This document shows positions 17,397-59,154 of a stretch of 64,000 nucleotides of DNA, piece by piece. Both the position numbers and the translations under genes were made by a program. Origin of the DNA: a virus. Lineage: Duplodnaviria; Caudoviricetes. Numbering within the stretch: the stretch's first letter is position 1; each line of letters begins with the position of its first letter. The stretch lies in the IMG/VR virus record IMGVR_UViG_3300050015_000990, positions 1,912-65,911 of that record, one strand, 5' to 3'. The notes below the pieces were generated by a model. It saw only the letters and a list, made by a program, of their open reading frames with translations, ran no database searches and was not told the DNA's origin.

Positions 17397-17786
17397 TTAA
17401 AAAATTTTGAGTTCAATTTGATTCTTTGCTGCTGCCATAGGATCTACAATTCTAGTTATTTTTGGTTTCGATGGAAAAGAATATCGATTTATATGTTCAA
17501 TCACTACATCAAAAAGAGTTTCAAAAGAACTATAAGGAATTTTTTCGGATTTATTTCTAACTGTAATAATATTATTTTCTTTATCTATTGATACAACAAA
17601 TTGAGGTCTTAAAATTACATTATTAATAAGATTCTGATGCATATCATAGTCTCTTTCTCCTGGTTTTCTTTTTGGGAACAGGTCAATAAGTATTTGTTTA
17701 ATATAATTCTGACCAATTCCCATAGAATGTTTAGGGTCTTGTCCTCTTTCAAAATTTAATATTTCATATATTTTTAGAGCTTTCAC
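17397..17786 (-). CDS. FERG-tag family protein
   Basis: N-terminus MKALKIYEILNFERGQDPKHSMGIG. Confidence 0.85.
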   Translation of the reverse strand: MKALKIYEILNFERGQDPKHSMGIGQNYIKQILIDLFPKRKPGERDYDMHQNLINNVILRPQFVVSIDKENNIITVRNKSEKIPYSSFETLFDVVIEHINRYSFPSKPKITRIVDPMAAAKNQIELKIF

Positions 17787-18169
17787 GAATTTATATAAAT
17801 ATTTAGGGTATTATAAGTAGGATTATCCCAATGATAGGATTCGGTGTCATTATTTCTATTTATATTTGATACTAATTGTTCAAAAAAGAAAACATTAGTT
17901 AATGATTGGGGTAAAGTTATAACAATTCTTCCATCTCCGGGGGTATTTTCATGTTTCTTTTCAAATCTAACTTTAGTAGTAGGCTCCATAATAATTTTAA
18001 CCATGTATTTAAATTCAATTTTTTTATCCTCATCTGATGGATAAGTTGCCGGGTCAGCCATCATGGAGATAAGTTTTTTCTTTTCCCTAGCTTGCCCAAT
18101 TTCCATAGCTTGTTTAGGATCCTGACCTCTTTCAAAGTCCATTTTTTCATATATTTTTATAGCTTTCAT
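17783..18169 (-). CDS. FERG-tag family protein
   Basis: MKAIKIYEKMDFERGQDPKQAMEIG; ATGA overlaps on both sides. Confidence 0.85.
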   Translation of the reverse strand: MKAIKIYEKMDFERGQDPKQAMEIGQAREKKKLISMMADPATYPSDEDKKIEFKYMVKIIMEPTTKVRFEKKHENTPGDGRIVITLPQSLTNVFFFEQLVSNINRNNDTESYHWDNPTYNTLNIYINS

Positions 18170-19740
18170 TTGCAAGAGGTTATTTTCTTAAATTCATCTA
18201 AACTAATATTTTCGTATTCCGAATCTTCAATATCATCAAATAAAATAATTCCTAATTCTTCTACATTTGTAAAATAAAGAGTATATGTTTCTTTAAAGGT
18301 CGGGGTTTTCTTATGAGTTTTTGTTGAAAAAATTATAAATTTAGGTTCGGGCTTATCCCAATCTATCTCTGAAACATCTTTAAAAATTGGGCACATTTTA
18401 GCTAATTGATGCATTTTTTTAAAGAGGTTTATTTTCGGAGCATCTGTTCTATAAGATCCAATATCTATGCTATCTTTAGGATCTAATCCTCGCTCAAAAT
18501 TTATTGATTCTTTTAGATATATTTTATCTAAATATCCTTTAATTATATCTACATAAGTCATAAAAGCCCCGCCTTCTAGTATTAAAGTGAATAAGTTTCC
18601 TATAACCGATCTTGTACTATTAATTCCTTCTTTAAATGGATATTTTTTAATCTCTTCCGTAATAGTGTCTTCAAGTTCTTTTTCGGCGTCTTCTATTTCT
18701 TTAGTTTCGTGTTTGAATTTTTGGAAAGTATCAGATTTAGCATTATCATACTGATCGAGAATATAGCTATTATATTCTGATAGAGAACGAAACCCAACTT
18801 TTTTAACAGCTATTGTAATTTTTTTTATAATCGGCTTTGTTTTTTCCTCAATATCATCGATAATATGAATGGCTAATTCTTCAGCAGTCATATCCCATTT
18901 CCATTTTCTCCCGACTCGTATAGAATCTTTAGGATCTATTCCTCTTTCAAAATTTACTGATTCTTTTATATAGGCTGGATCTAGTTTTTGCTTAATCATC
19001 TCTACATAAGTTTTGTGAGGACCTCCCTCAAGCTCTAAAGTAAAGAGATCCCCAATTAAATTCTTTTTAGCTTTTTCATCTCTGATTGGAAAATTTTCTA
19101 CTTCAGATGCTATAGTTTCTTCTAATTCTTGTTCAGCATCGTCGATTTCTTTAGAGACAAAAGGAAACTTATCATCTTCGTCAAAGCGTAGATAAACATA
19201 TTCTTGATATGTTTCTATATCTTTATACCCGGCTTTTTTGACAGCATCTTCTATTTTATTTAATATAGGCCTTACCTTATCACTTACAGTATCTAAAATA
19301 TGGTTTGCTAATTCTTCAGCAGTCATATTCCAAATATGTTTTCGACCAATTCTTATTGAATCTTTTGGATCTATTCCTCGCTCGAAATTTTGGGATTCAT
19401 TAAAATGATCAATTCCATTGATCTTTGCATAAAATTTATCAAAATGTTTTTTTGTAGGAATTAAATCCAGCGGAAAATCTTTTTCTTCTTCATCACAATG
19501 ATAGCCCCATTCGGAAACTTTATATCCTCCATCTCTTTTAAGAGAAAATGCTCGATAAATTTTATTATTTTTAGGATCCTTAAACCACCAATAATAATCC
19601 CATCGAGGTATTTTTGAAAGATAAAGAACTCCTGAAATCATTTTATCCATGGCTCTTTTTCCAAGACGACCGATTTCCATAGAATCCTTGGGATCTATTC
19701 CTCTCTCAAATTTAATATTTTCTACAAGTTTAGCTCTCAC
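18166..19740 (-). CDS. FERG-tag polyprotein with four tag+cargo modules
   Basis: ENIKFERGIDPKDSMEIG, FNESQNFERGIDPKDSIRIG, IKESVNFERGIDPKDSIRVG and LKESINFERGLDPKDSIDIG. Confidence 0.85.
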   Translation of the reverse strand: MRAKLVENIKFERGIDPKDSMEIGRLGKRAMDKMISGVLYLSKIPRWDYYWWFKDPKNNKIYRAFSLKRDGGYKVSEWGYHCDEEEKDFPLDLIPTKKHFDKFYAKINGIDHFNESQNFERGIDPKDSIRIGRKHIWNMTAEELANHILDTVSDKVRPILNKIEDAVKKAGYKDIETYQEYVYLRFDEDDKFPFVSKEIDDAEQELEETIASEVENFPIRDEKAKKNLIGDLFTLELEGGPHKTYVEMIKQKLDPAYIKESVNFERGIDPKDSIRVGRKWKWDMTAEELAIHIIDDIEEKTKPIIKKITIAVKKVGFRSLSEYNSYILDQYDNAKSDTFQKFKHETKEIEDAEKELEDTITEEIKKYPFKEGINSTRSVIGNLFTLILEGGAFMTYVDIIKGYLDKIYLKESINFERGLDPKDSIDIGSYRTDAPKINLFKKMHQLAKMCPIFKDVSEIDWDKPEPKFIIFSTKTHKKTPTFKETYTLYFTNVEELGIILFDDIEDSEYENISLDEFKKITSCK

Positions 19741-19743
19741 CTT

Positions 19744-20130
19744 TTATATATTTGATTTTTTAAGAATGAAAATTTTACTGTAAAAAATTTCAAACAAAAT
19801 AGTAAATGAACAATAGAAAATAAGAAAATCAGTCCACCAATTAATTAATGGATGATAAAAAACAAGAGCAAACATAATGCAAATTAACATCAGAAATTTG
19901 CAGAAATGCCAAAAATCCGTAGTCCAGACTAAAACTGTACTAGATCCCCAAAATTTTTCTCCAGACCATACCCCATCAATATATTTCCATTTATTCTGGG
20001 AGCTGATAGCAGGATTTATCCATTGCTGATTTTTCCAACTAGAAAAAATCGAAGCATTAAATTTAAATCTTAGAACATCCATGCAAGCATTAAAGATACC
20101 TGCAATGATAAGAAGAATAGCAGAGATCAT
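19744..20130 (-). CDS. Hypothetical membrane protein
   Basis: Three hydrophobic helices; Trp-rich 'GEKFWGSSTVLVWTTDFWH'. Confidence 0.65.
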   Translation of the reverse strand: MISAILLIIAGIFNACMDVLRFKFNASIFSSWKNQQWINPAISSQNKWKYIDGVWSGEKFWGSSTVLVWTTDFWHFCKFLMLICIMFALVFYHPLINWWTDFLIFYCSFTILFEIFYSKIFILKKSNI

Positions 20131-20372
20131 TTTTCTTTTTTGGTTAAGTCCCTAATTGTATTAACTATTCCTGCAATAATAAAAGTTAAAATAGTTAAAA
20201 TTAGATATGCTGCAAATGTTAATCCCACTATATTAAAAATATCTGTAAGAATAGGGGAATGTGTATTTCTAACTATTAATGCTGAGATTATTATCAAAGC
20301 AAATGATACAAGAATTTTTATTAGTCCATTTTTTTGAAACCAATTTTTTAAAAATTCAATTATTTTTTTCAT
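20127..20372 (-). CDS. Small two-TM membrane protein (holin-like topology)
   Basis: Two TM helices with a basic C-terminus. Confidence 0.5.
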   Translation of the reverse strand: MKKIIEFLKNWFQKNGLIKILVSFALIIISALIVRNTHSPILTDIFNIVGLTFAAYLILTILTFIIAGIVNTIRDLTKKEK

Positions 20373-20398
20373 GGGATTCTTTTCTTTATTTATCCCAC

Positions 20399-20428
20399 AA
20401 AAAAAGCTCGCATTGAGGCTGCGGGCAA
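20399..20428 (-). terminator. Intrinsic terminator (degenerate copy of the tmRNA terminator)
   Basis: Minus strand GCCCGCA-GCCTCAA-TGCGAGC followed by a T run. Confidence 0.65.
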
Positions 20429-20431: not shown

Positions 20432-20932
20432 TTATTTTATACCATGTTTTTTCTTATACATTCCATTAAGAGGCCCAGCAACTAAACTTCCGTTATTTTT
20501 CATTCCATTATTTTGACTCCTTTTTTGTCTTGTCTCTAAAGAATGAATCATTCCAAGATTTTTTGATTGGCCCATTTCACTTTTACTAATTTTTATTTTG
20601 GATTCTGCTGAATGAAATTTTCCCTTCATTGGGGATCTTCGGCCTTTTGGGGAACCCCCCTTACCTCCAGGATTTATATTATAGCAAAGTGGATTTTTCA
20701 ATATTTCTTTAGTAATAAATTTAAATTCGAATTCTAATGCTTTCTTAAAATCTTCAAGTTCATGCAAAATTTCTTTTTTAAAATTTTCTCTTCCATATTT
20801 TTTAATAGCTCTTAGAATCATTTTTCCCGAGCCAAGATATTTATCATTTAAACTATTTGACGCATGAACTCCATAATAAAATTTTTCATTTATTAAATTG
20901 GTGGTTTTATAAAAATAGTTAAATTTTTTCAT
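20432..20932 (-). CDS. GIY-YIG (Seg-like) homing endonuclease
   Basis: 'YFYKTTNLINEKFYYGVH..YLGSG', 'CYNINPGGKGG' and NUMOD3 'HSAESKIKIS'. Start taken at MKKFNY. Confidence 0.88.
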   Translation of the reverse strand: MKKFNYFYKTTNLINEKFYYGVHASNSLNDKYLGSGKMILRAIKKYGRENFKKEILHELEDFKKALEFEFKFITKEILKNPLCYNINPGGKGGSPKGRRSPMKGKFHSAESKIKISKSEMGQSKNLGMIHSLETRQKRSQNNGMKNNGSLVAGPLNGMYKKKHGIK

Positions 20933-20933
20933 A

Positions 20934-20960
20934 AAAAAAGCTGGCACTTAGGCTGCCAGC
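20934..20960 (-). terminator. Intrinsic terminator of the tmRNA coding piece
   Basis: Minus strand GCTGGCA-GCCTAAG-TGCCAGC-TTTTTTT. Confidence 0.8.
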
Positions 20961-21576: not shown

Positions 21577-22083
21577 TTATCTTAAATAAGAAAGAGTTAA
21601 ACTATCGAGATAGACTTTAATCTCATTTAATCTATCAAGTTCTTTTTGCTTAGCAATAATACGAGCTTTTAAGCTTAAACCAAAAAGTCTTTTAGCAAAC
21701 CATTTGATTATTTGATTAACATTTGTTGTTGGTTCAATAATAATATCTCCATCCGAATCTGCAATTGAAAAACCATAATAATTTTTCCAATTAGATTCTT
21801 CAGCCCATCCTTCTTCTTCAGCAGCTTTTTTTGAAACATAAGAAAGCTGAACACCAGCAATATCTTCTTCATCATCTTTATCCATAATATTTTCAAATTC
21901 AAAATCAAATACTGGTCCAGCATAATGCTCATCTTGATGAGCTTTAGCTACTATACCAATCTTTTTCAATCCTGCAATAACATCCTGGATATGTTTTTTA
22001 TAAGTAAGCCCAATATCCATAGCTTCCTTAGGATCTAATCCTCGTTCAAAATTTTGAACTTCATTAATAGTTTTAGCTTTCAT
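21577..22083 (-). CDS. FERG-tag family protein
   Basis: MKAKTINEVQNFERGLDPKEAMDIG; start reassigned to 22083. Confidence 0.85.
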   Translation of the reverse strand: MKAKTINEVQNFERGLDPKEAMDIGLTYKKHIQDVIAGLKKIGIVAKAHQDEHYAGPVFDFEFENIMDKDDEEDIAGVQLSYVSKKAAEEEGWAEESNWKNYYGFSIADSDGDIIIEPTTNVNQIIKWFAKRLFGLSLKARIIAKQKELDRLNEIKVYLDSLTLSYLR

Positions 22084-22465
22084 TTCTTTGAAATATTTTA
22101 AATCTATTTTCCATTTGCATTCTTGTTCCATACATTCTTTTCTGCGGTAATATATCTAGTGATTCATTTCTTCTTTTTAAAGCTTCCGGTAAATTCCAGC
22201 ATTTAAAATATTCTAAATGTATAATATGTTTAACTTCTTGAGGGTCATAAAATTTTTGAACCTTTAATATTAGAACAATCATATCTGGCCAAATAATATC
22301 CTGGGAACTTCTACCAGCAACACTGCTAACAAATGCACCTTTGCCATCGATATTAACTTCTTTTTTGGGTAAAAGAATATCTCCAATTTTAATATTATCC
22401 CAGGTTCTTAATCCGATATCCATAGCTTCTTTAGGATCTTGTCCTCTTATGAATTGTGCTCTCAT
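22073..22465 (-). CDS. FERG-tag family protein (short FIRG variant)
   Basis: MRAQFIRGQDPKEAMDIG followed by a 'TWDNIKIGDIL' cargo. Confidence 0.85.
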   Translation of the reverse strand: MRAQFIRGQDPKEAMDIGLRTWDNIKIGDILLPKKEVNIDGKGAFVSSVAGRSSQDIIWPDMIVLILKVQKFYDPQEVKHIIHLEYFKCWNLPEALKRRNESLDILPQKRMYGTRMQMENRFKIFQRNES

Positions 22466-23280
22466 AATACTTTAAAATATTTTGACCAAGTATCTATTGG
22501 AGCTGTTCCCTTTACAGGAGAATATAGGGATGAGAATTTATTGATGTTGATACTTATAGCTTCCTTTTTTGTTTCAAAGGGAATAATAGTAATTCGAAGT
22601 CCTACTTCTTGAAGATCCACAATTGTTTTTATAACTCCTATATTGCCAGGATCAAAAGAATAATCACTATCCCCTAAATATTGTCCGTTAATATAATCTT
22701 TAAAAGTAAGAAAATCCTGATTACTTTTTTCTTCTACAACAGTTCTTCTTATACATTCAATCATATCTCCAACTTTAATACGAGTCCACTTATTTCCAAT
22801 ATCCATGGAAATTTTAGGATCCTGTCCTCTCTCAAAATTTTGAGTTTCCTGGACTTTATTGTATTCTTTTGGCTGAATAATTTTAAAATAATCATCCCAC
22901 TCTTCAATAGAATGATCGACTGTATATGATGGTGGAAGATTTTTAGATGCAAGATCGCCAATAGGCTGTTTAATTCTTTCAGCCATAGAAAGAGCATGAC
23001 GAAAAATCCCTGCCCAAACCAATTCAATTTCTAAGCTAGAAGTTCTATCCAATTCATTGCTCGAACGAATGGATTTAATAATCCAATATTTTTCGGGGCT
23101 TATTCTATCTAAAAAAGTATCATTTGAAACAAATGAAATTTTATTAATATGAAGATATACAGTTTTTTTATTCTGAAGTATATCCCCAGGCTTTAGCTTA
23201 TCCCATGTTAAAATACCGATATTTAATCGTTTAAGAGGAGAACCCTCCCTTTCAAAATCCAATGACTCTCTTACTATCAT
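22462..23280 (-). CDS. FERG-tag two-module protein
   Basis: MIVRESLDFEREGSPLKRLNIG and internal VQETQNFERGQDPKISMDIG. Both cargos start W-x-x-I/L-K-x-G-D. Confidence 0.85.
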   Translation of the reverse strand: MIVRESLDFEREGSPLKRLNIGILTWDKLKPGDILQNKKTVYLHINKISFVSNDTFLDRISPEKYWIIKSIRSSNELDRTSSLEIELVWAGIFRHALSMAERIKQPIGDLASKNLPPSYTVDHSIEEWDDYFKIIQPKEYNKVQETQNFERGQDPKISMDIGNKWTRIKVGDMIECIRRTVVEEKSNQDFLTFKDYINGQYLGDSDYSFDPGNIGVIKTIVDLQEVGLRITIIPFETKKEAISININKFSSLYSPVKGTAPIDTWSKYFKVL

Positions 23281-23283
23281 AAC

Positions 23284-23323
23284 AAAAAATTCCAGTATAG
23301 AATATCTATCTGGAATTTTTTTT
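23284..23323 (-). terminator. Intrinsic terminator
   Basis: AAAAAATTCCAG...CTGGAATTTTTT inverted repeat with T runs. Confidence 0.65.
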
Positions 23324-23346
23324 ACTAGTTTTTTATTAGTTTAATA

Positions 23347-27533: not shown

Positions 27534-28145
27534 TTAGATGGATAAAGTTCTTATTTGTCCTTTAGCTAAAGTTCCAAAGACTGGAGTATCGCTATCTATT
27601 CCTCTTATAATTCTAACGGGATCTGCATCTCCAATAATAGATGTATAATCTCCAGCATGAATCATAATATTGGCTGTAGCTTCTCCTGTTTGAGTATCTA
27701 CTTCAACCCCCTCAACATAATCTTGGGGATTAGCAAAATTCTGAGGATCTTCCAAAACCTGAACCTGATCCCTAGGAACTATATTTAAAGCTCCTTCTAT
27801 AAGAATATTTACATTTGTTCCTGGAGTAGATTTTAAATAATCAGAATATCGTATATAGCATCCATTAGTTCTTATAGGAACTGCTTTATAAAAAATCCCA
27901 CATTTAACATATTGTTCAAAAAGAAGTTTCTGAGTTTTTTCATTAAAATTCATAAGAAGAGCTTTGGTGTTCGGAGTATTCTGAGCAAGACCTCTTAAAA
28001 CTTTTAACTCTTTGTCCTTAGCAAACCTAGTTGATCCCTGAATTTGAACAATCCATTGACCATCTGAAGTTTGACCAATAAGAAATCCTCTCTCTTTTCC
28101 GAGAAGAACCTTATCACCTATTTGGGCTTCGTTTAGTTTTGCCAT
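27534..28145 (-). CDS. Hypothetical protein, probably head-associated
   Basis: Starts MAKLNEA (LxE protease-like leader); follows the acidic core-like gene. Confidence 0.55.
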   Translation of the reverse strand: MAKLNEAQIGDKVLLGKERGFLIGQTSDGQWIVQIQGSTRFAKDKELKVLRGLAQNTPNTKALLMNFNEKTQKLLFEQYVKCGIFYKAVPIRTNGCYIRYSDYLKSTPGTNVNILIEGALNIVPRDQVQVLEDPQNFANPQDYVEGVEVDTQTGEATANIMIHAGDYTSIIGDADPVRIIRGIDSDTPVFGTLAKGQIRTLSI

Positions 28146-28170: not shown

Positions 28171-30372
28171 TTAACTCTTTTTTGCATCAGATTTTAATTT
28201 TTCACGAAAAATCTCCATATTCTTATCTTCTGCGGTTTTATGTTCCCCTGCTTTTATTTTTGCTTGTAACCCCTTACTCTTTTCTGCTGCTGTTTTTTTC
28301 TTTGTTGCTGTTTCGACTACTAAATCTTCTTTAAGAGCTTTCTTTTTTTTTAAAAATACTTTACGTTTTTTAGGAACTTCAGTTTTTTCAGCTGTCGAAT
28401 CTTCAATTGGGGATTTTTTCTTTTTTTCTTCGTCATCTTCATCATCCTTTTCCCCTTCCTCATCACTATCTGATTTATCTTCAATTTTTATTTCATCTTC
28501 TTCACCACCTTCAAGATCTTCTGGACCACCTTCTTCACCTTCTGGTTTTACTTCATCTCCTCCTTCTTCACCTTCTTTTCCCTTAGCTTTTTCTTCAGCT
28601 TCTTTCTTATCTGCATCAGCCTCAGCTTCATCACCACCAAGATTAACAGTATCAGTAGCTATGGTTGGAGTATCTCCAAGTAATTCAGTTTGATCTTGAT
28701 CAAAAGTTACTGCAGAAGCAGGTTGAACATCCATATCTTCTTTTCCAACTTCAGCTCCACCTTCTTCACCATTTCCCCCTTCTATAGATCCTTCCCCACC
28801 GCCTTCTTTTGGAATAGGAACAGTATATTTCTTTCCATCAACATCAACTGTAACAGTAATAGCTTCTCCCAAAGGACGAGTATATTTTTCGGCTTTTGCT
28901 AAATAGTCCTTATATTCATTTTGAACATCATCATGTTCTTCCTGAAGAGCTTCAATAACTTGATTACTCATTTCAGTTCCATAAGGATTTTGTTTAAAAT
29001 CAGACATCTTAGTTTCTAGAAGTTGAATATAATCCCTATAATCTTTTTTAGTTTCTTCAATTTCTTCAATGATTTTCTCATCTTCCGGAAGAAGTCCTTC
29101 AAATAATCTTGAAATATCATAGCGAAGATGTTCCATCATAATACTTTTAGCCTGAATAGGATTAATATTACGATAGAAAGTACTCTTTCCGTCGGTGCTA
29201 TTATGAGTAGCTACATATACATTACCACGTAGCTTAAATACATCTGCTGCATGATTTTCATCTTCTTTTAAGAATACTCTCTTGGCGAAATCAATTTCTG
29301 CAATTTCATTGAAATTTTTTCTCAAAGTTTCAACAAGTACAAGAAGATGACCCTTACCTGTCCAATGAGCTATTTCAGCGCTATTAGAAAATTCCTCATT
29401 AGTAATATCTTTTCCGTTTATAGAAATTTTATCTTCTGTAATAATAGCTTTATCGGTTTTATCATAAATAGAAATAGATTTACCATCGATAACAACATTA
29501 GGATTATTAATAGCTTCGCATAGAGAAACGAAGGTTGGATCTAATTTCTTAGAATCTTTTTCGGTTAATCTAGAAACTACATTACCTTTCTTAACATAAT
29601 AAAGACCTTTGACAGCAAATACTGCTTCGTTTTCTCCTAAATAAAGTATTGGAGAATAAACCTTCTCAATACCGCAAGAAGCATTTGCATGTTCAAGTTG
29701 AAGCTCAGTAGCATCAAGGGTTACTAAATTTATAATATCTCTAATAAAAGGATCATAAGAAAACTTGATAAGACATTCCTTTACAAAACTTTGAGTTTGC
29801 GGGTTTTTATCATCAAGATAATTCTGAATAGTATCTTCAATCAGGGGAACTAGATAACTGCTTTTAGATTCTTTCATAGTATCTACAATCTTTGTTATTA
29901 CAACATCAGTTTTGTAGGTCTTGACCTGATCCTCTATAGCTTTAATAGCATTTCCAACTTTTGGAAAATATGAAAATGATTGCATAGCTGTTAAGAAAGA
30001 TTCATATAAACGAACTTCCAGAACTCCTTCATTAATACTTTCTTTGAAATATTCAAGAGTAGATTTTAAAGCATAATTATCTTTTCCTTCTGTTAAAGAA
30101 AGATTTGAAATTGATTCCCTAACTCCCAGGTTTTTTACTGCCCAAGCTCTTTTTTCTCTTTCAAGCCATTTCTTAGTATCAAGATCCTGCGATTTGCTTA
30201 ATCCTTCAAAAAGCTTAGTTATAGAAAATTTTTCAATTTCATATTTAGCTTCTGGAGTCATACTATTGTACATAGTTGAATTTAATCCTGCAAGTGCAAT
30301 TTCGCATAGAGCTTTAACTTCAGTAGAAGTTGTTTTGCTTTTTAGTTGGTTGATTTTTTCTATCATTGCCAT
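28171..30372 (-). CDS. Large helical/acidic protein, putative prohead core/scaffold
   Basis: Many xxE sites (LFE, VRES, LTE, FKES, LYES, MKES), a coiled coil and a long acidic low-complexity tail. Confidence 0.5.
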   Translation of the reverse strand: MAMIEKINQLKSKTTSTEVKALCEIALAGLNSTMYNSMTPEAKYEIEKFSITKLFEGLSKSQDLDTKKWLEREKRAWAVKNLGVRESISNLSLTEGKDNYALKSTLEYFKESINEGVLEVRLYESFLTAMQSFSYFPKVGNAIKAIEDQVKTYKTDVVITKIVDTMKESKSSYLVPLIEDTIQNYLDDKNPQTQSFVKECLIKFSYDPFIRDIINLVTLDATELQLEHANASCGIEKVYSPILYLGENEAVFAVKGLYYVKKGNVVSRLTEKDSKKLDPTFVSLCEAINNPNVVIDGKSISIYDKTDKAIITEDKISINGKDITNEEFSNSAEIAHWTGKGHLLVLVETLRKNFNEIAEIDFAKRVFLKEDENHAADVFKLRGNVYVATHNSTDGKSTFYRNINPIQAKSIMMEHLRYDISRLFEGLLPEDEKIIEEIEETKKDYRDYIQLLETKMSDFKQNPYGTEMSNQVIEALQEEHDDVQNEYKDYLAKAEKYTRPLGEAITVTVDVDGKKYTVPIPKEGGGEGSIEGGNGEEGGAEVGKEDMDVQPASAVTFDQDQTELLGDTPTIATDTVNLGGDEAEADADKKEAEEKAKGKEGEEGGDEVKPEGEEGGPEDLEGGEEDEIKIEDKSDSDEEGEKDDEDDEEKKKKSPIEDSTAEKTEVPKKRKVFLKKKKALKEDLVVETATKKKTAAEKSKGLQAKIKAGEHKTAEDKNMEIFREKLKSDAKKS

Positions 30373-30398: not shown

Positions 30399-30893
30399 CT
30401 ATATATTATTTAAAGCGCTTTCTTTTTTTCCTTTTTCAGGTATTAAAACTTTTACCCCTGTTAATTTTTCAATGCCATCATATATTTCCTGAACACTTTT
30501 TAGATTTCTTGACTCTGTCAATCCCCGAAGAACAATTTCATTTTCTTCCTCGGTTAATTTTCGAATATTTTCTGAGTGAAAAACTATATTAAAACTACTA
30601 AAGCCATGAGGAAAAAACGTTGAAAGCTTATTCCTTCCCTTTCCAAAAGCATCCTCTATTAGATCCTGAAGTAATCCTACTTCATAAGATAAGACATTAT
30701 TTCTTTTAAAAGAATCCCTAGGATCCCATCGTCTAAGATCCTCTTTGGTTGGAGCTCGTAAAAATACTTCAATCATTATTGAAGTTCCATTCCATCTTCG
30801 ATCAGTTGTAACCAGAGTTCCGGGTCGAATCCCAAAAATAGCTTCCTTAGGATCTATTCCTCTTTCAAAATTAATAGATTCCCTAACAATCAT
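30399..30893 (-). CDS. FERG-tag family protein
   Basis: MIVRESINFERGIDPKEAIFGI. Confidence 0.85.
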   Translation of the reverse strand: MIVRESINFERGIDPKEAIFGIRPGTLVTTDRRWNGTSIMIEVFLRAPTKEDLRRWDPRDSFKRNNVLSYEVGLLQDLIEDAFGKGRNKLSTFFPHGFSSFNIVFHSENIRKLTEEENEIVLRGLTESRNLKSVQEIYDGIEKLTGVKVLIPEKGKKESALNNI

Positions 30894-32221
30894 TACACAA
30901 TAGTAATATTTTCTACAACTCCAAAATGATCTTCCGGGTGATTACTATCAACAATTTCAATCTTTATATTGGAATAATCCAATATTCCAGGAAATAAAAT
31001 AGATGAATCTACTGTGAATGGAGCAGAAGGATCGAGTTCGTTCCATTTAATATTAGCATGAATAGCACCATCAGGACTATATTGTATTTGTCCTGAAGAA
31101 GCATCTTTCATTTCAAGTTGGATATTGATAGAAGCATCATTTGAACCCCCAGTTAAAAAATATCCTGATGAAAAAATAATAAATGAATTAGCATTTATTA
31201 AATTTGTACTTAAATCCGGAATAATTTTAACCACTGGTTCTCTAAAAACAGACACCAAAGAAGTATCTTCCCAAATCATTGTTGGAGGAACATAAGCTGT
31301 AAAAGTTTCAGGAATATTCCAAATATAATATTCGGTATTTGGCTGAAATCGATCTATTTCTTGTCTATCATTAGTTCCGGTATAAAGCCAATAAAGATCT
31401 ACTTTAGGAATAATATAATTTTCTCTTGTATAAGTCCATTGAATCCAAAGAGGAATTCCTTTAGGAACAACAGCTCCTTCTTGGGGAGTAGTTATTACAA
31501 ATTGTGTTTGGGTATTTTTTGCTCCTATTGGATGAATATCATAATTAAATCCCTTAATTTTGGTTGTAGCTTTCATCTCTGTAGTCTTATCAAAAACAGG
31601 TTGATATGATTCAATTTCTAGAGAAAAATTTAATTTGACTTTATTATCAACTTCAAAACTATATTGAATATTTTTATCAATAGCAATATCTTCTGGAAAT
31701 CCTACCGTACATCCAACTCGAAGTCCTTTGTAATAAACATAATAGGTAACATTTTTATAAAAAGTTTCTCTGATTTCTTGTTCTAATTTAAGAGCTGTAA
31801 CCTGTCTATCAATCCACATTTCACAATCAATACGAATCTGAAGAGGAATTGAATAGAGAAATGAAACATAACTTTCAAGTTTGCCATCTACTTCTTTAAC
31901 ATATCGACCCTGAACAAATCGAGAAGTAATTCTTTGAGCATTTATTGTGGATCCTGTATAAGTAATGATCCCTCTAGGAATCATATCAAAATTGCCATCT
32001 ACAGGTCTAGGGGGAAGACATTCTGCATAGTGAGTATAAAAATCTTGCATAAATCTTTCATCTCCGGATTGATTATAAAACCAAGGGACCTTAACAATTT
32101 CTATATCCTCATTCCCCCAAACTTGTTTATATTCAATATGATTATTAAGAATATCCAAGAGTCCTGCAAGAACCGCCCTTATCAAGATATCCTCGTTGTT
32201 ATACTTCTGATATAGTGCCAT
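30893..32221 (-). CDS. gp15: Tail terminator/sheath stabiliser (T4 gp15-like) with C-terminal extension
   Basis: 'VKVPWFY..GDERF', 'IPRG', 'IPLQI..E.....ALKLEQEI', 'FSLEIESYQPVF'; Ig-like C-terminal half. Confidence 0.65.
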   Translation of the reverse strand: MALYQKYNNEDILIRAVLAGLLDILNNHIEYKQVWGNEDIEIVKVPWFYNQSGDERFMQDFYTHYAECLPPRPVDGNFDMIPRGIITYTGSTINAQRITSRFVQGRYVKEVDGKLESYVSFLYSIPLQIRIDCEMWIDRQVTALKLEQEIRETFYKNVTYYVYYKGLRVGCTVGFPEDIAIDKNIQYSFEVDNKVKLNFSLEIESYQPVFDKTTEMKATTKIKGFNYDIHPIGAKNTQTQFVITTPQEGAVVPKGIPLWIQWTYTRENYIIPKVDLYWLYTGTNDRQEIDRFQPNTEYYIWNIPETFTAYVPPTMIWEDTSLVSVFREPVVKIIPDLSTNLINANSFIIFSSGYFLTGGSNDASINIQLEMKDASSGQIQYSPDGAIHANIKWNELDPSAPFTVDSSILFPGILDYSNIKIEIVDSNHPEDHFGVVENITIV

Positions 32222-32262: not shown

Positions 32263-32643
32263 CTAATCATAATAATAAAAAAGCATTTCTTTATCATCAT
32301 ATTTTAAACCTTGTATAATCTTAGGACTATGAGCATCAATAATGGTTTGAATCCCTTCAAAAAAGAAATAATTCATTTTATGTTCTGGAAGAATAAGTCT
32401 AATACGAGTCTTGTTTGTACCATGATATAGATATAAAGTAGTTAAATCTGGTTCAAAAGAAATTTGAGTTGTAGGTTCCTGTATAATTTCTTTAATTTTT
32501 TTCCAACTATTTGAAAATCCCCCACCAAGGCTTTTTGGAAATAATTGGATGAATTTATTTTTTAAACCAAGATTCATCGCTTCTTTAGGATCCTGTCCTC
32601 TCTCAAAATTATTCATTTTTTCTGATACCAAGTAAGCTTTCAT
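32263..32643 (-). CDS. FERG-tag family protein
   Basis: MKAYLVSEKMNNFERGQDPKEAMNLG. Its cargo resembles that of 17783..18169 (EPTT..FE, FFFE). Confidence 0.85.
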   Translation of the reverse strand: MKAYLVSEKMNNFERGQDPKEAMNLGLKNKFIQLFPKSLGGGFSNSWKKIKEIIQEPTTQISFEPDLTTLYLYHGTNKTRIRLILPEHKMNYFFFEGIQTIIDAHSPKIIQGLKYDDKEMLFYYYD

Positions 32644-32981
32644 TTTTTAAATATTTTTTTAATAAATATAGTAAATTTAATATCTTTTAGTGCTTCTTTT
32701 GGATTTCTATAATTTTGAGTTTGATAATTAGTTGTTGTTGCAAAATATCTTTTATTTTCAGTATCATCATTTTTTCTTAATACTAAGATTGGAAACCCTC
32801 TATAATTTTTAATTAAATCGATAACAGTAACTGCATCTCGAATCTCATTAAAAGGAAAATCCCACGGGGTTTCTTCAATAAATTTTGTATCTAAATAAGT
32901 TTGGCCAATATCCATAGTAGTTCTAGGATTCCCTCCTCTTTCAAAATTATGCAATTTTTCTGATACAAAGTAAGCTTTCAT
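32640..32981 (-). CDS. FERG-tag family protein
   Basis: MKAYFVSEKLHNFERGGNPRTTMDIG. Confidence 0.85.
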   Translation of the reverse strand: MKAYFVSEKLHNFERGGNPRTTMDIGQTYLDTKFIEETPWDFPFNEIRDAVTVIDLIKNYRGFPILVLRKNDDTENKRYFATTTNYQTQNYRNPKEALKDIKFTIFIKKIFKK

Positions 32982-47818: not shown

Positions 47819-48277
47819 TTACTGATTATTTTTAAAAGCATCTGTTTCTTTTGGAACAATATCAAAAGAAATAATTTTATAATTCACGACTTCTTTATTT
47901 TCATTTACCTCGCCGGTTCCTCTTGGCCTTACTACAAAAAAAGTTGTAAATTTTGTCATATCATTCTTGATTAAACCCAAAAGTTTATGACCATTAGGTG
48001 TATCAAGAATTTCGAGAGTCCCTTCTATAGCGTGTGATTCGGGATTGATATGAATTTCTTTAATTTTATGCGAAACATCACCTAATTTTCCTTTGAAATC
48101 CTCAGCTTCGGGATATCCTAGTTGTCCTACCATTGGAAATCTGTGATCTAGTTCTTCAAATTGTTTTACAATGTCTTCAGCACACTCTTTGGTGTACATT
48201 CTACCATTTTCATTGACGGTATCGTAATAAATAAATTTTCCTTTTAGATTCATTTTTTCAAATTTTTTCATTGCCAT
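47819..48277 (-). CDS. T4 gp21-like prohead protease paralog, catalytic residues substituted
   Basis: 'NENGRMY', 'GQLGYP', 'VSHKI', 'ILDTPNG', 'RPRGTG', 'ISFDIV'. Confidence 0.75.
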   Translation of the reverse strand: MAMKKFEKMNLKGKFIYYDTVNENGRMYTKECAEDIVKQFEELDHRFPMVGQLGYPEAEDFKGKLGDVSHKIKEIHINPESHAIEGTLEILDTPNGHKLLGLIKNDMTKFTTFFVVRPRGTGEVNENKEVVNYKIISFDIVPKETDAFKNNQ

Positions 48278-50461: not shown

Positions 50462-51280
50462 TTATAATTTTTTATACCAGTATTTCATCTTATTTATCGC
50501 ATCTTCTAAAGAATCATATGGTATTTCATCTGTCTGAGAATTAGGAAACAATCTGGAGATTTCATATCCTGCTGCCCAATTTGCTCCTCCGTTATCTGGA
50601 TCTGGTTCTGGAACATAAGCTAGATAATAAAAATATGTTGTTGCTCCATCTGTTCTTTCAATTCCTATCTCAATAAAAAGCTTTTGATTAAGCTCTTTAA
50701 TTCTCATATAGGGATTATCTTCATACTCAAGAATATCCGGACCCCACCATTCAACAGCCATTTCTTCAATAGCTTTTCTTAATTGCTTATAAGCTATTTT
50801 CATTTTTCTTCCTTGAACATCACCAAGTTCCATAGCATCTATAGGTTCTATTCCTCTCTCGAAGTTTACAGATTCCTTTAGCTTTGTTTCAGCATAATCT
50901 TTTAATCTTTCTTTTGTACTTTCATCTGTATTTGGCCATAAATCCTGGAGGGCATCTTCAACTTCTTTTATTCTTGGCTTTTCTTTGTCTATCCAATCCC
51001 CGAAAATAGAAGATGAACTAGTAGTTAAATGACCCCTTTTAACACAAAATTCAATATATTTTCTATATCCTTTAGAAGTTCCGGGAGTCATAGCATGATC
51101 AATCCATCTTTGATATTTTTTTATATCATCCTCATCAGCCCATGTTTTATGACCAATTAATTCCTTAGCCGATGGAATCTTATAAATTCCAATATTCATA
51201 GAATCTTTAGGATCCATTCCTCTTTCGAAATTTACGGATTCATTGGCTTTTAAAGGAGGAATAAGTTTAGCTGTCCAATC
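50462..51280 (-). CDS. FERG-tag two-module protein; lacks its own ATG leader and is in frame with 51281..51634
   Basis: Upstream of the track's ATG (51217) the frame reads DWTAKLIPPLKANESVNFERG-MDPKDSMNIG. Internal LKESVNFERGIEPIDAMELG. Confidence 0.75.
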   Translation of the reverse strand, partial: DWTAKLIPPLKANESVNFERGMDPKDSMNIGIYKIPSAKELIGHKTWADEDDIKKYQRWIDHAMTPGTSKGYRKYIEFCVKRGHLTTSSSSIFGDWIDKEKPRIKEVEDALQDLWPNTDESTKERLKDYAETKLKESVNFERGIEPIDAMELGDVQGRKMKIAYKQLRKAIEEMAVEWWGPDILEYEDNPYMRIKELNQKLFIEIGIERTDGATTYFYYLAYVPEPDPDNGGANWAAGYEISRLFPNSQTDEIPYDSLEDAINKMKYWYKKL

Positions 51281-51634
51281 CTATTTATTAAGAAAGATTC
51301 TTGTTTTTAACATTGCTTTTTCTAGAGTTCCAGCAGGATTTTGATCCTCAATATTGTCGGTTTTAATATTAGAATATCCTGCCCAATAATGTTCTCTTTC
51401 TTTGTCATAATAAATCCAATATTTATAAGGATGAACAAGATTTGGTTGTTTGCCATTAAATTCCACTAAAATACCTTCTTCTTTCAGTTGTGTTTGAATT
51501 GTCTTTAAATCAAGATTATAGTCTCGGCAAATTATTCGAACTCCTTGTTCCATTCGATCTCTAATTCGAAGAAATTTATTGCCAATATCCATAGCAGTTT
51601 TAGGATCTTCGCCTCTTATAAAATGTGCTCTCAT
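51281..51634 (-). CDS. FERG-tag family protein (FIRG variant)
   Basis: MRAHFIRGEDPKTAMDIG. Confidence 0.85.
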   Translation of the reverse strand: MRAHFIRGEDPKTAMDIGNKFLRIRDRMEQGVRIICRDYNLDLKTIQTQLKEEGILVEFNGKQPNLVHPYKYWIYYDKEREHYWAGYSNIKTDNIEDQNPAGTLEKAMLKTRIFLNK

Positions 51635-52041
51635 ATATTTTCAATCCATCCTTTTAGTTTAGAAACAGCCGGGTCTAAATTCCTATAGGTACTCATGTCC
51701 GATGCCCCCCTTGCAACTTTAGCCCATTTGGCAACAAATTTTTGGGGTACCTCCTCATTTAAAGGATTTCCTACCCAATTCAAAGAAAAATAATATTCTT
51801 TATATTCTAAGTTCACATCAATTGCATCTGTTTCCCATTGCCCTCTATTTGCAAATCCCTGATTTATTTCTCGATATTCTATTTCAAATTTTGGTTTAAA
51901 ATATGTTTGTATTGAGTTTTCTATAAGCTTTTCGAATTCCTTTACAAGAATATCTGCAATACGTTTTAGTTTTCTTCCTCTAACATCTCCGAGATTCATT
52001 GCATCCATAGGGTCTTCCCCTCTTATAAAATGTGCTCTCAT
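51631..52041 (-). CDS. FERG-tag family protein (FIRG variant)
   Basis: MRAHFIRGEDPMDAMNLG. Confidence 0.85.
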   Translation of the reverse strand: MRAHFIRGEDPMDAMNLGDVRGRKLKRIADILVKEFEKLIENSIQTYFKPKFEIEYREINQGFANRGQWETDAIDVNLEYKEYYFSLNWVGNPLNEEVPQKFVAKWAKVARGASDMSTYRNLDPAVSKLKGWIENI

Positions 52042-52436
52042 ATTATATTAGAATTTTTTTCGTAAAATTCTATTTGTTTAATAAGTGTGTCAATAGTTTC
52101 AAATGCTAAATGATCTTCTCGCCCCCTACTAGAAATAAGAGTCATTTCATATCTTGGAGCAAAATATGTTACTTCTAAGGTATAAGTGTTCATATGTTTT
52201 GTTCTAAAATTTACTTTATAAAAAGAAATATCATCCCTGGTTGTTATATTTTGAGTTTTTCGAGAAAATCTAGAAGATAATTCTTTAGCTGCATTATAGA
52301 TTTCATCTCTTCTTATACTAAATTCTGCTTTTTTTCTCTTACACTCTCTTCCTCCTACATCACCAATCCCCATAGCATCTTTAGGATCTTGTCCTCTTTC
52401 AAAGTTAATATTTTCAAATACTTTCGAAGCTCTCAT
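52038..52436 (-). CDS. FERG-tag family protein
   Basis: MRASKVFENINFERGQDPKDAMGIG; start reassigned to 52436. Confidence 0.85.
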   Translation of the reverse strand: MRASKVFENINFERGQDPKDAMGIGDVGGRECKRKKAEFSIRRDEIYNAAKELSSRFSRKTQNITTRDDISFYKVNFRTKHMNTYTLEVTYFAPRYEMTLISSRGREDHLAFETIDTLIKQIEFYEKNSNII

Positions 52437-52816
52437 TATTTTTTTTGATTTAACCAATTTTCTAATCTATAAGTAGAATCGTCTATTGTTTCATCTAAAG
52501 ATTCTTCGACATCATTTAATTCTTCTACTCCCTTGTTATTATAATCAACATCTTTATACCCAGAATAGAAACGATCTTTCATTGTATCATATCCCATATA
52601 CCAAAAGTAACCCCGGTAATAAAACCCGCATTCAATATATGGACCTTATTGTCCTGTACGATCCTCTATTGGAAACCTTCCATTCAAATTTATGGTTAAA
52701 TCCTTTAAAGCAGCAATAATCGGTCTTTTCCAAGCAAGAGATTTTCTTTGTTCGGCTCTCCCTATATCTAAAGAATCTAATGGATTTTCATTATGTCTTA
52801 TAAATTGAGCTCTCAT
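52436..52816 (-). pseudogene. FERG-tag family gene (FIRH variant) with an in-frame TAA at 52646-52648
   Basis: MRAQFIRHNENPLDSLDIG...RTGQ*GPYIECGFYYRGYFWYMGYD...RFYSGY...RLENWLNQKK*. The distal half resembles neighbouring cargos and ends in a TAATG overlap. Confidence 0.75.
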
Positions 52817-53229
52817 ATTCCTTCTTTGATCCATTTTTTTATCTGTTCTAAACAATCCTCAAGTTTCCCAAGAGTAGAAGGACTCGAACCTTCACGTCTT
52901 TCCCAAATCCAATTTCCATCTCCTAAATTATATCCACACAAAAACATTTTAAATCCTCTATTTCCCTCTGAATATCCTATAATATATTCGCATTCTTTCT
53001 TTTTCATTGTTTCCATAAAGTTCAATCCTACATTTTCTATATTTGATTTTTCATCTTTGTAATAAAAATCCCTTATCTCTCTAGGATTAAATTTATTTTT
53101 TTTCATAAAGGGAATGATAACATCGTTTTTTAATTCTGAAAAGTATTTTCTCATTTTTCTCTCTTCTACTCGACCTATATCTAGAGTATCCAAAGGATTT
53201 TCATTATGTCTTATAAATTGAGCTCTCAT
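52813..53229 (-). CDS. FERG-tag family protein (FIRH variant)
   Basis: MRAQFIRHNENPLDTLDIG. Confidence 0.85.
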   Translation of the reverse strand: MRAQFIRHNENPLDTLDIGRVEERKMRKYFSELKNDVIIPFMKKNKFNPREIRDFYYKDEKSNIENVGLNFMETMKKKECEYIIGYSEGNRGFKMFLCGYNLGDGNWIWERREGSSPSTLGKLEDCLEQIKKWIKEGI

Positions 53230-53660
53230 TGGCATTTTTTGTTTTTGCTGTCTTTAGAGTTTTTTTTCGAATTTGCAGTTATATAACTCTTGATCCTCGA
53301 TTTTAATATTTTAGTAATATTTTGAATACTATTATCATCTGTCCATTTATTTGATTGCCATTCTAAAGTTCCCGATGTCTCATCATCATATCTATACCAT
53401 TGAAGAAAATGTTTATATTTTCCAGCTGGATCATCCGCTAAGTCAAAATGCATTTCAAAAATATATTTTCCTTTTTTAAATATTATTTTTGGATCCAATA
53501 CATTTTTCATATTATTTTTAACTTCCTTATATTCTAAAAAAATAAATCCCGGAAAAGATTCAACAGTAGTTTTGATTAATTTTATTTTTCTACCCTCAAT
53601 ATCGCCAAGATTTAAAGTATCTAAAGGATTTTCATTATGTCTTACAAATTGAGCTCTCAC
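53226..53660 (-). CDS. FERG-tag family protein (FVRH variant)
   Basis: MRAQFVRHNENPLDTLNLG; GTG start. Confidence 0.85.
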   Translation of the reverse strand: MRAQFVRHNENPLDTLNLGDIEGRKIKLIKTTVESFPGFIFLEYKEVKNNMKNVLDPKIIFKKGKYIFEMHFDLADDPAGKYKHFLQWYRYDDETSGTLEWQSNKWTDDNSIQNITKILKSRIKSYITANSKKNSKDSKNKKCQ

Positions 53661-56329: not shown

Positions 56330-56331
56330 TT

Positions 56332-57507: not shown

Positions 57508-57718
57508 ACAAGATTTATTATTTGTATGTTTTGAGAAATGGATAGTTTTAATTTTCACAAACCATTAACGAGCTATTAATTAATGACTTTATAAACTGAT
57601 TTCCACATTTGTTTAATAGAAAGTCTGGATTCTTTAAGTTTACGAGTTACCCATGCAAACCAAATAAAAGCTTCAATTCTTCTAAATATTTTCACTTATT
57701 TAAACTTTATATTTAAAA

Positions 57719-57743
57719 AATTAGGGGCTCAACACCCCTAATT
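57719..57743 (-). terminator. Intrinsic terminator
   Basis: AATTAGGGG-ctcaaca-CCCCTAATT followed by a T run on the minus strand. Confidence 0.65.
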
Positions 57744-57767
57744 CAAAAATAAAATAATTTATCTACT

Positions 57768-58565
57768 TTAAAAATCCGTGATGGATTCGTCATATTTTTC
57801 GTCTTTTACAACCATCGAAGTAACGGTTATGGTTTGACTATCTTTTGATTTATAAATAATTTTTTCATCAGATAAATCAACATCATAATTTTCTAAGTCG
57901 ATCTTTTCAAATTGTAACTTATAAATTGATATACCTGCTTCTGCTTCACCTGAATCCCCTAAAGCAAATTCAAAGGTTTTTCCTCTAACATTTAATTTAT
58001 TTCCCTTAGTTTTAAAATCTAGAAATTTATATTCATTATCCAAAGCACAAAGAGAATTAATCTTTTCTATTTTGAGACTAGGAAGTTCAAATGAAACTTC
58101 TGGAGCAATTTGAGCAATATTATTGAGAAAAAGATTATCCGAAATATATTTAAAAATGTGAAGAGGAGTACAATTGAGATTCATTTTAAGGGTAGGATTT
58201 TTAAGAAGAATGCTTGTTCCAACAAATCCTGCATCTTCTCCAATAACCTCATCATATTTAAATCCTAAATAAAATTCTTCGGAAACAAAATGTTCAAGGG
58301 ATTTCATAAGCCTCGGAATATGATAAATACCTACTTTTATTCGGGTTTTAAGCGAGGGCTTACTGGTAATCTCAAGACCAGCATCTTCAAAAGATATTCT
58401 GGAAAACTTAACTACACTTTTTTCAGGATTATTGGATTTGGCTAAAAATTCTTGAGCTGTTTCATCAATCTCCAAGAGGAGAGAATTGTCAATAGAAGAA
58501 AATCTTTTTAACCATGAAGTAAAAGGTCGAATATTCTTCGCCTTGAACTCTAATACTTTTGCCAT
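57768..58565 (-). CDS. Putative sliding clamp (gp45/PCNA-like)
   Basis: 265 aa, 'LKRFSSIDNSLL', 'VGIYHIPRLMKSL'; next to the polymerase. Confidence 0.55.
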   Translation of the reverse strand: MAKVLEFKAKNIRPFTSWLKRFSSIDNSLLLEIDETAQEFLAKSNNPEKSVVKFSRISFEDAGLEITSKPSLKTRIKVGIYHIPRLMKSLEHFVSEEFYLGFKYDEVIGEDAGFVGTSILLKNPTLKMNLNCTPLHIFKYISDNLFLNNIAQIAPEVSFELPSLKIEKINSLCALDNEYKFLDFKTKGNKLNVRGKTFEFALGDSGEAEAGISIYKLQFEKIDLENYDVDLSDEKIIYKSKDSQTITVTSMVVKDEKYDESITDF

Positions 58566-58599
58566 AGTAATTTTATTTGTAATTATTATATTTTGTATG

Positions 58600-58627
58600 T
58601 TTTATGATGATAGGATAAAGAAGTTTT
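58600..58627 (-). promoter_or_regulatory. Candidate middle promoter AAAACT-N17-TAAAA
   Basis: Upstream of the clamp gene. Confidence 0.6.
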
Positions 58628-58632
58628 AATTA

Positions 58633-59154
58633 TTATCCCTTAAATTTTAATTCTGTATGATCTATTCTATAAACTCCGGAATTAAACCATTTTATCATCA
58701 TACTTTCAAAATTATCTTCAAACCATTCTTCAGTCATTTCATAAAACCATATTTTAGCTTTTGCTGGATCTAATAACCGATCAATTATTTTATTAAAAAC
58801 CTCCGGATTATCCCAAAATGTTGCTTCTTCTTTGTTAAACATATTGGTAGGTTTATTCTGCATATTGTTTAGGGAGAATGGAATTCCTCTAAATTTCCAG
58901 TCTCCAATAAGTCCTTCCCCGTGAAAATATATTGAATCTGCTCTTTGAGATTCATTTTTGGTAGAATAATAAAGATGGGTCCAATAAGTATACTTATTTT
59001 TGAATGAATCTACAACATAGCAGAAATAGGTAAAGAGAATCTTGCCATCATGATCCTCCCTCCATTTTCTATGGAGAATACCTATGCTCATTGCTGTTTT
59101 AGGATCCTGACCTCTTTCGAAGTTTAGAACTTCATTAACCTCTTTGGCTTTCAT
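58633..59154 (-). CDS. FERG-tag family protein
   Basis: MKAKEVNEVLNFERGQDPKTAMSIG. Confidence 0.85.
   Translation of the reverse strand: MKAKEVNEVLNFERGQDPKTAMSIGILHRKWREDHDGKILFTYFCYVVDSFKNKYTYWTHLYYSTKNESQRADSIYFHGEGLIGDWKFRGIPFSLNNMQNKPTNMFNKEEATFWDNPEVFNKIIDRLLDPAKAKIWFYEMTEEWFEDNFESMMIKWFNSGVYRIDHTELKFKG

Follow-up and report, generated by a model that had tools for sequence, protein, structure and literature searches.

A portable peptide tag on diverse cargo modules of a probable huge T4-related phage: a possible cut-and-address signal for head packaging

The DNA analysed here (hereafter the window) is a 64-kb stretch of the Caudoviricetes virus record IMGVR_UViG_3300050015_000990, which makes up nearly the whole of a 65.9-kb virus contig with a G+C content of about 30%. 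Its minus strand encodes 22 copies of a short peptide motif with the core N-F-E-R-G-x-D-P-K, each heading a module with a small protein domain (below, the tag and its cargo, respectively). Sequence comparison and structure prediction gave good support for the tag being a portable, flexible and virus-restricted peptide placed on many mostly unrelated cargos. The residues ahead of the core extend the motif to a junction that, judged from sequence, has the form of a cleavage site of the T4-type (S77) head-maturation protease, and our preferred reading, to which we give a little less than an even chance, is that the motif serves as a two-part cut-and-address tag for cargo modules that are packaged in the phage head and possibly injected.

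Occurrence and conservation of the tag

The loose pattern F-x-R-[GEH]-x-x-P gave 19 matches in the six reading frames of the window, all on the minus strand at five loci, and a profile built from these 19 copies added three variants of the form F-[IV]-R-H-N-E-N-P-L-D at 52.6–53.7 kb, the third of which scored weakly (E 0.79) and was taken in by eye. Pattern and profile together thereby reproduced the count of an earlier note on this DNA, i.e. 22 copies in 17 minus-strand open reading frames (ORFs) at five loci, with a summed ORF length of approximately 9.1 kb. The strict pattern F-[EI]-R-G-x-[DNE]-P occurred 18 times in the window, compared with a mean of 0.005 and a maximum of 1 in 200 mononucleotide shuffles of the DNA and with none in 200 residue shuffles of the minus-strand ORFs.

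The pairwise identity of the tag DNA was 0.71, 0.80 and 0.555 at the first, second and third codon positions, respectively, and the conserved residues were encoded by several codons (GGT 8, GGA 5, GGG 3 and GGC 2 for the final G; AGA 15, CGA 3 and AGG 1 for R; TCT/AGC as another synonymous pair), indicating selection on the peptide and agreeing with the synonymous variation claimed in the earlier note. Two further claims of that note were also confirmed: adjacent tag genes were coupled by seven ATGA overlaps and one GTGA overlap, and leaders ending in x-x-E were common, with E four residues ahead of F in 14 of the 19 canonical window copies (the start Met stood there in three and K in two). 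The description of the 17 ORFs as genes stood only in part, since the ORFs were all present but 52435–52816 contains an in-frame TAA and the first tag of 50462–51280 has no start codon before it.

A search of 1.84 billion metagenome proteins with the tag profile returned 1670 representatives of 50%-identity clusters at E ≤ 0.001, including 478 at ≤1e-10 and 82 at ≤1e-30. The 30 related viral loci, several of which are near-duplicates of each other, had 172 tag matches. There were 37 tags in a 133-kb relative (G001) and 24 in a 78-kb relative. No tag was present in the other huge phages Lak-A1 (542 kb), LR756500.1 and LR756501.1 (462 and 735 kb), and tblastn of the 58633–59154 protein against 50,697 phage records gave no match. 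Among 185,579 prokaryote species, each represented by one genome, the pattern [ND]FERG[QL]DPK, which is narrow and would miss variants, was found on a single 2.9-kb metagenome-bin contig, which itself looks like phage DNA with tag chains. As far as seen, the tag is restricted to one clade of huge phages. By extrapolation, if the density is even, more than 100 tags would be expected per genome.

The phage carrying the tags

Judged from its genes and from estimates of completeness, the phage is huge and related to T4. The window encodes a gp41-type helicase, gp46/gp47 and a gp2-like end protector, together with UvsX, gp45 and a split DNA polymerase identified by eye, and its portal protein had 41–43% identity to the portals of Lak megaphages and of a 462-kb uncultured phage. 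CheckV completeness was 16% for the contig of the window and 15–33% for four tag-bearing related contigs of 61–133 kb, from which a genome size of roughly 400 kb was estimated; one homolog (P0031) was located on a 376-kb contig. The window stretch recurs in contigs of peat metagenomes. Stop-codon recoding was considered and rejected: TAA, TAG and TGA all terminate ORFs in the window and a tRNA gene search of the window found none, therefore the standard genetic code applies.

Composition of the full motif and of the modules

The motif was compared in 90 distinct copies from the window and the 30 related viral loci and in 488 internal copies from 150 metagenome proteins. With the F of the core as position 0, the full motif reads [LIV](-6)-x-E(-4)-S(-3)-[VLI]-N-F-E-R-G-x-D-P-K-x-[AS]-M-x-I-G and is longer than the version given in the earlier note. 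Position -4 was E in 475 of the 488 internal tags, making it as invariant as F, R and G, while position -3 was S, A, N, G or T in 461 and position -6 was L, I, V or M in 414 of them. Among the 90 distinct copies, N or D stood at -1 in 84 and K at +7 in 82, and the D-P pair at +5/+6 was near-invariant.

A short leader with E at -4, typically MIVRE-S, MKIVKE-N or MKAxxVxE-x, preceded the first tag in at least 115 of the 150 metagenome proteins. A leaderless minority started 2–4 residues ahead of F (MNFERG, MRAQFIRG), and because of this the free N-terminus is always near the predicted cut. Such starts would fit a mature form beginning just ahead of N-F-E-R-G. The modules occurred either as single genes or in chains, reaching 11 tags in one protein of 1511 residues. 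In the best 150 metagenome proteins, which contained 619 tags, the tag-to-tag spacing had a median of 118 residues with quartiles of 109 and 131, so that the module size is narrow although the cargos are diverse.

Diversity of the cargos

The 19 cargos of the window had 86–148 residues, and only modules 2 and 3 of the chain 18166–19740 clustered together by BLAST (E < 1e-4). In the larger set of 149 distinct cargos from the window and the 30 related loci (median 104 residues), 83 BLAST clusters were formed. The earlier note had claimed that the sequence diverges right after the final G of the tag; this held for the mostly dissimilar cargos but not for some distant paralogs, for example 22073–22465 and both modules of 22462–23280. 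Weak patterns were shared within the seven-gene array at 50.5–53.7 kb and within a group at 22.1–23.3 kb with W-x-x-I-K-x-G-D. The cargo family of 32640–32981, a single gene in the window, was recognized by eye as an internal module in two chains (P0002 and P0050).

Pfam found ankyrin repeats in two and GNAT in one of 80 tag ORFs, and Ank_2 in nine and GNAT in three of 76 multi-tag proteins (49,480 residues in total). The matches in all these relatives concerned the cargo domains and never the tag. For 10 tag proteins of the window there was no Pfam match above cut-off and no match in PHROGs v4 at E ≤ 0.001. No description of the tag was found in the literature searched, a scope that did not extend to supplementary files and subscription journals, nor in the accessible part of PMC12880540. 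The possibility raised beforehand that the motif might already be a characterised domain thus found no support in Pfam, PHROGs or the literature. No cargo matched known anti-defence families, and ArdA (PF07275) was absent from all five records checked, including the contig of the window.

The AlphaFold2 model of 22073–22465, made with 16 sequences, had a mean predicted local distance difference test (pLDDT) of 80.8, with 80–93 in the cargo blocks and 47 and 54 in the tag blocks. In the model of the two-module protein 22462–23280 (mean pLDDT 62.0) the first cargo domain reached 61–88, whereas values below 50 were obtained at the N-terminal tag (residues 1–22) and at junction residues 144–151 and 153–162, the latter being a weaker statement on the second tag because the model of the second module is itself poor. 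A VIA wide search with the 22073–22465 cargo model gave only SH3/EF-P-domain-I-like matches, all weak and below the meaningful level of the tool, the best of which (Z 5.8, root-mean-square deviation 3.1, 65 residues aligned) is too weak to name the fold. Foldseek of this model against the PDB returned nothing at E ≤ 0.001, and the ESM Atlas gave no usable match with the 524-aa chain 18166–19740. The low confidence of the tags in both AlphaFold2 models, the 83 cargo clusters and the ankyrin and GNAT cargos speak against the tag being an integral strand of one shared fold.

Two ORFs of another sequence (L043:2-2056 and 2053-2826) form a tag chain with a long repeat array, leucine-rich by eye, in which a second, related junction, E-S-x-x-F-x-R-x-x-S-E-x-E-I-K...G-x-R-x-G, alternates with the canonical tag.

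Links to the head-maturation protease and the capsid

The cleavage site of the T4 head protease is L/I-x-E. The relative G001 encodes an S77 domain with intact His and Ser motifs, fused to a long charged scaffold-like tail, and downstream of it a capsid protein of the Gp23 family (8e-38), whose LNE-AEMGG aligns with LTE-AEIGG of T4 gp23, the T4 maturation cut site. In both T4 and giant phages, the S77 head proteases cleave behind a Glu that is preceded by a short motif, according to the accessible part of PMC9026906. The tag junction, [LIV]-x-E followed by a small residue, has this form. Two of the tag clusters follow the portal gene on its downstream side, in the place that prohead-core genes occupy in T4 (gp67, gp68, gp21 and gp22). 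One tag protein (P0209, L006:7450-7908) contains a copy of capsid-protein residues 89–145, which start 46 residues past the predicted cut (BLASTP 2e-10, 39% identity).

The window itself encodes a diverged S77 paralog (47819–48277). In alignment with T4 gp21 its catalytic His motif reads GQLGYP and its Ser motif VVRPRG, so that both catalytic residues are missing. Across the family of this paralog the His was missing in 16 of 16 members, and the Ser was kept in most (VRSRG). The gene adjoins uvsX both in the window and in a relative (L036). With phmmer only a chance match, and not gp21, was found among PDB sequences, and a complex prediction of the paralog with a tag peptide scored 0.14 compared with a mark of 0.32, giving no verdict either way. 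A diverged head-protease paralog has also been reported for SPN3US in the part of PMC5694885 accessible to us.

Three further proteins resemble head components or tag leaders. The product of 27534–28145 has the N-terminus MAKLNEAQIG, with L-N-E-A at residues 4–7, and resembles the capsid N-terminus of a relative (MKQLNEAQIVEK, L040:1231); the protein is possibly a head component carrying a short propeptide. The neighbouring 28171–30372 encodes 733 aa with nine [LIV]-x-E-[SAG] sites, a long acidic Gly-rich tail and no family match, and might be a multiply cleaved scaffold or core protein. A 517-aa protein (L018:5689-7239, with counterparts in L019, L025 and L028) has an AAA-like Walker B stretch by eye and starts with MKKQLVFE-S, which has the form of a tag leader without the FERG handle.

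Proposed function and points against it

As we picture the cut-and-address tag, its first part, [LIV]-x-E plus a small residue, would be the site of the phage's own S77 head-maturation protease, which would cut the chains into single modules and trim the 4–8-residue leader from the products of single genes. The second part, N-F-E-R-G...I-G, would stay at the new N-terminus as a handle that binds a common prohead partner (core, shell interior or portal), by which the module would be packaged. More speculatively, the modules might be ejected from the capsid together with the DNA and then serve against the host as a large swappable kit, like the internal proteins of T4. Effector or anti-defence roles would be a guess, prompted by the T4 precedent and by the ankyrin, GNAT and repeat cargos. 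That the handle serves generally as an address for loading and ejection, by which the capsid of a phage with about 400 kb of DNA would hold more than 100 small proteins, freed by the protease and entering the host, is conceivable but doubtful.

Several observations weigh against head packaging. The contig of the window, which is 16% complete, has no active head protease or capsid gene. The tag clusters lie in long minus-strand units that also contain replication genes. For the T4 late box TATAAATA, the window showed no enrichment (20 found, 16.2 expected). A looser box, [ATG]ATAAATA, was present in the 60 nt ahead of 14 of the 81 ORFs compared with 0.035 per 60 nt overall, a background that includes the whole window and not intergenic DNA alone; tag operons had this box in front of them, but so did the portal gene, uvsX and gp55. 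The isoelectric points (pI) of the cargos were mixed, with a median of 6.2 and 48% below 6, while IPII and IPIII of T4 are uniformly basic. The capsid-targeting sequence (CTS) of T4, MKTYQEFIAE, has no sequence likeness to the window leaders beyond M-K-[TA]. A binding beta-strand could account equally well for the E at -4 and the alternating hydrophobic residues. In T4 the targeting sequence is removed, so that it offers no precedent for a conserved handle that follows the cut, and more than 100 packaged species per genome, if the extrapolation holds, would be unprecedented.

Avoidance of the cleavage site within the cargos gave an ambiguous result that carries little weight and belongs with these reservations. 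Inside 611 cargos [LIV]-x-E-[SAG] was found 132 times compared with 170.9 expected (0.77 of the shuffle expectation, z -3.5), and versions with D or Q were not under-represented. In non-tag ORFs it was 1.48-fold over expectation, an excess due to a few site-rich proteins (28171–30372, the protease-scaffold fusion), and the replication enzymes had 0–1 sites.

Alternative explanations

The tag could instead be a short linear motif for cytoplasmic docking on a single hub protein, of host or phage origin, to which many different modules would be drawn during infection, its chains staying whole or being cut by a protease other than that of the head and nothing being packaged, an explanation that we hold to be unlikely but far from negligible. 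The predicted disorder of the tags on their own is usual for docking motifs, the position of the tag genes in operons with replication genes and with no clear late promoter would be expected, as would the mixed cargo pI, and the alternation at -6, -4, -2 and 0 fits a beta-strand added to the sheet of a partner; the ankyrin and GNAT cargos would suit a cytoplasmic takeover of the host as well. However, such docking would leave unexplained the exact match to the S77 site (E in 475 and a small residue in 461 of the 488 internal tags), the leaderless starts near the cut site and the narrow module size, and no candidate for the hub was identified.

Self-cleavage at Asp-Pro or at Asn and the Lys-Asn crosslinks of HK97 capsids are established chemistry, and a self-processing or covalent element, either cutting itself at Asn-Phe or Asp-Pro or forming an isopeptide bond through E, N/D and K, would make use of residues that are well kept in the tag (N/D at -1 in 84 and K at +7 in 82 of 90 copies, with D-P near-invariant). 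We consider this quite improbable, since the known modules of this kind are folded domains of more than 100 residues, in contrast to the tag with its 20 residues and predicted flexibility, no Pfam likeness was found, and a cut at D-P would discard the best-conserved half of the tag.

A reading in which the paralogs of one expanded, single-fold family keep the tag as their conserved N-terminal part is highly improbable and already largely refuted: the weak patterns common to the 50.5–53.7 kb array and to the W-x-x-I-K-x-G-D group and the tandem arrays, which suggest duplication, would be in its favour, but ankyrin repeats, GNAT, a weakly SH3-like barrel and leucine-rich repeats (by eye) are all found among the cargos, the 149 distinct cargos fell into 83 BLAST clusters, and both AlphaFold2 models show the tag detached and with low confidence. 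The least probable explanation, a feature of the DNA such as a recombination or cassette-exchange site or a recent duplication with peptide conservation as a by-product, can point to the tags delimiting cassettes and to short contig pieces elsewhere in the same metagenomes that match tag DNA with 3–8 differences, but it conflicts with the third codon position being the least conserved (0.555 compared with 0.71 and 0.80), with the use of several codons at conserved residues, including AGA/CGA and TCT/AGC, and with the retention of the peptide across 1670 clusters at 50% identity.

Comparison with known systems

Papers cited in this section were accessible in part, and the statements taken from them refer to those parts. 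Taken as a cut-and-address signal, the tag is closest in layout to the CTS of the T4 proteins IPI, IPII, IPIII and Alt, a short conserved N-terminal peptide on diverse small proteins that ends in a hydrophobic-x-Glu head-protease site, and the phage shares with T4 homologs of the portal, UvsX, gp41, gp45 and gp46/47. An alignment of the N-termini of T4 IPI, IPII and IPIII with five window leaders had M1 and an F in common. The T4 internal proteins form a diverse and variable kit against host defences (PMC3012670, PMC5694885) with the targeting sequence alone in common (PMC3012670), which is a propeptide of 10–20 residues that is cut off (PMC5694885). The tag differs in that its 16 conserved residues follow the putative cut and would be retained, only the leader of 4–8 residues being lost, in that its modules are often chained with up to 11 per protein, and in that the repertoire is far larger (22 tags in 64 kb and 37 in the 133-kb relative).

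The giant phages phiKZ, 201phi2-1 and SPN3US offer a second parallel: many of their internal head proteins are cleaved behind Glu by a protease of the S77 type, and they have expanded families of head paralogs and a diverged head-protease paralog (PMC5694885, PMC9026906). Their propeptides, unlike the leaders described here, are longer than 100 residues, family-specific and cut at S/A/G-x-E or A-x-E, and no bead-like chains of unrelated domains are formed. The P3 residue of phiKZ-type sites is A, S or G, in contrast to L, I or V in the tag, and it is L, I or V in the sites of the T4 head protease. The 10 tag proteins of the window that were searched had no Pfam match, and no comparison aimed at the head families of these phages was made.

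One address on many swappable cargos is likewise found in the MuF-domain toxins of phage heads, in MIX and LXG effectors and in the cargo-loading peptides of encapsulins. The likeness lies in the working logic only, and Pfam and PHROGs gave no homology; their markers are folded domains or C-terminal peptides, and none is a repeated junction in chains. Viral polyproteins also combine several domains in one frame with the junctions best conserved, but they are typical of RNA viruses and consist of essential replication or capsid proteins in a fixed order, whereas the order and content of the tag modules vary freely and the same modules also occur as single genes.

Features of the window

The tag genes and the S77 paralog are listed in Table 1. 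The TAG at 51281–51283 separates the ORF 51281–51634 from two further start-less modules and was present with no differences in metagenome contigs of two runs (X3 and X4), and the TAA at 52646–52648 lies inside an X3 contig, again with no differences. Since they are identical in runs of other studies, neither stop is an assembly slip of one sample. Among the 11 TAG stops of the window, only the one at 51281 precedes a long open frame. Both stops could mark read-through sites or young pseudogenes.

Table 1. Tag-bearing genes and the diverged head-protease paralog of the window
Position	Strand	Feature	Details
17397–17786	-	single tag and cargo gene	129 aa; GTG start; leader MKALKIYE; GTGA overlap with upstream gene
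17783–18175	-	single tag and cargo gene	likely start ATG at 18169, leader MKAIKIYE; ATGA overlap
18166–19740	-	four-module chain, 524 aa	internal tags after FNE-S, IKE-S and LKE-S; modules 2 and 3 are paralogs
21577–22131	-	single tag and cargo gene	likely start MKAKTINE, 22083
22073–22465	-	leaderless tag (MRAQFIRGQDPK...) with possibly SH3-like beta-barrel cargo	AlphaFold2, weak structural matches
22462–23280	-	two-module chain, 272 aa	first tag degenerate (FEREGSPLKRLNIG); internal junction VQE-T
30399–30893	-	single tag and cargo gene	leader MIVRE-S; directly downstream of 442-aa ORF 30893–32221
32263–32643	-	single tag and cargo gene	ATGA overlap
32640–32981	-	single tag and cargo gene	cargo family found again in three loci
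47819–48277	-	diverged S77 head-protease paralog	PHROG 207, E 5.8e-15; between uvsX and gp41-type helicase
50462–51280	-	two modules, no start codon before first tag	in frame behind TAG 51281–51283
51281–51634	-	leaderless tag gene (MRAHFIRGEDPK)	pattern/profile match
51631–52041	-	leaderless tag gene (MRAHFIRGEDPM)	pattern/profile match
52038–52457	-	single tag and cargo gene	likely start MRASKVFE, 52436
52435–52816	-	variant-tag module (MRAQFIRHNENPLD)	broken by in-frame TAA 52646–52648
52813–53235	-	variant-tag gene (MRAQFIRHNENPLD)	homologs P0030 and P0042
53226–53660	-	variant-tag gene (MRAQFVRHNENPLD)	first of seven-gene array; profile E 0.79, read by eye
58633–59154	-	single tag and cargo gene, 173 aa	orthologs; fused to upstream DUF3008 protein in metagenome relative P0025

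The DUF3008 protein encoded at 59135–59857 ends with ...FLYESQRG, resembling a truncated junction, and its gene overlaps the tag gene 58633–59154 by 20 nt. A terminator-like hairpin (TTCCAG...CTGGAA plus a T run) was present at 23281–23346, a few bases ahead of the start codon of 22462–23280, with no promoter-like box between the two. The sequence AAAACT-N15-19-TAWAA had 13 minus-strand copies, including those at 58627, 49888, 45811, 45004, 41381, 40299, 35754 and 27490, several of which closely preceded replication genes and gp55; no tag cluster had a copy immediately ahead of it. Three homing-endonuclease-like genes were interspersed among the conserved genes, one with PHROG matches (12295–12873) and two GIY-YIG-like by eye (20432–20947 and 33117–33953).

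Significance

Should the capsid part of the proposal prove wrong, there would still be an undescribed virus-restricted motif that marks 1670 protein clusters and offers a handle for finding its partner. If the cut-and-address function is true, huge phages would have scaled up the idea of the T4 internal proteins into a modular system of one tag and hundreds of cargos, with the chains cut apart in the head. This would explain a sizeable share of their unknown genes (the tag genes take up about 9 of the 64 kb), would make available a large set of candidate proteins directed at the host or against its defences and would provide a compact tag by which capsids could be loaded with foreign proteins. 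Were the handle also the general loading and ejection address considered above, these phages would carry by far the largest virion-borne effector kit known, occupying about one-tenth of the genome, and the tag would represent a natural modular signal for protein delivery.

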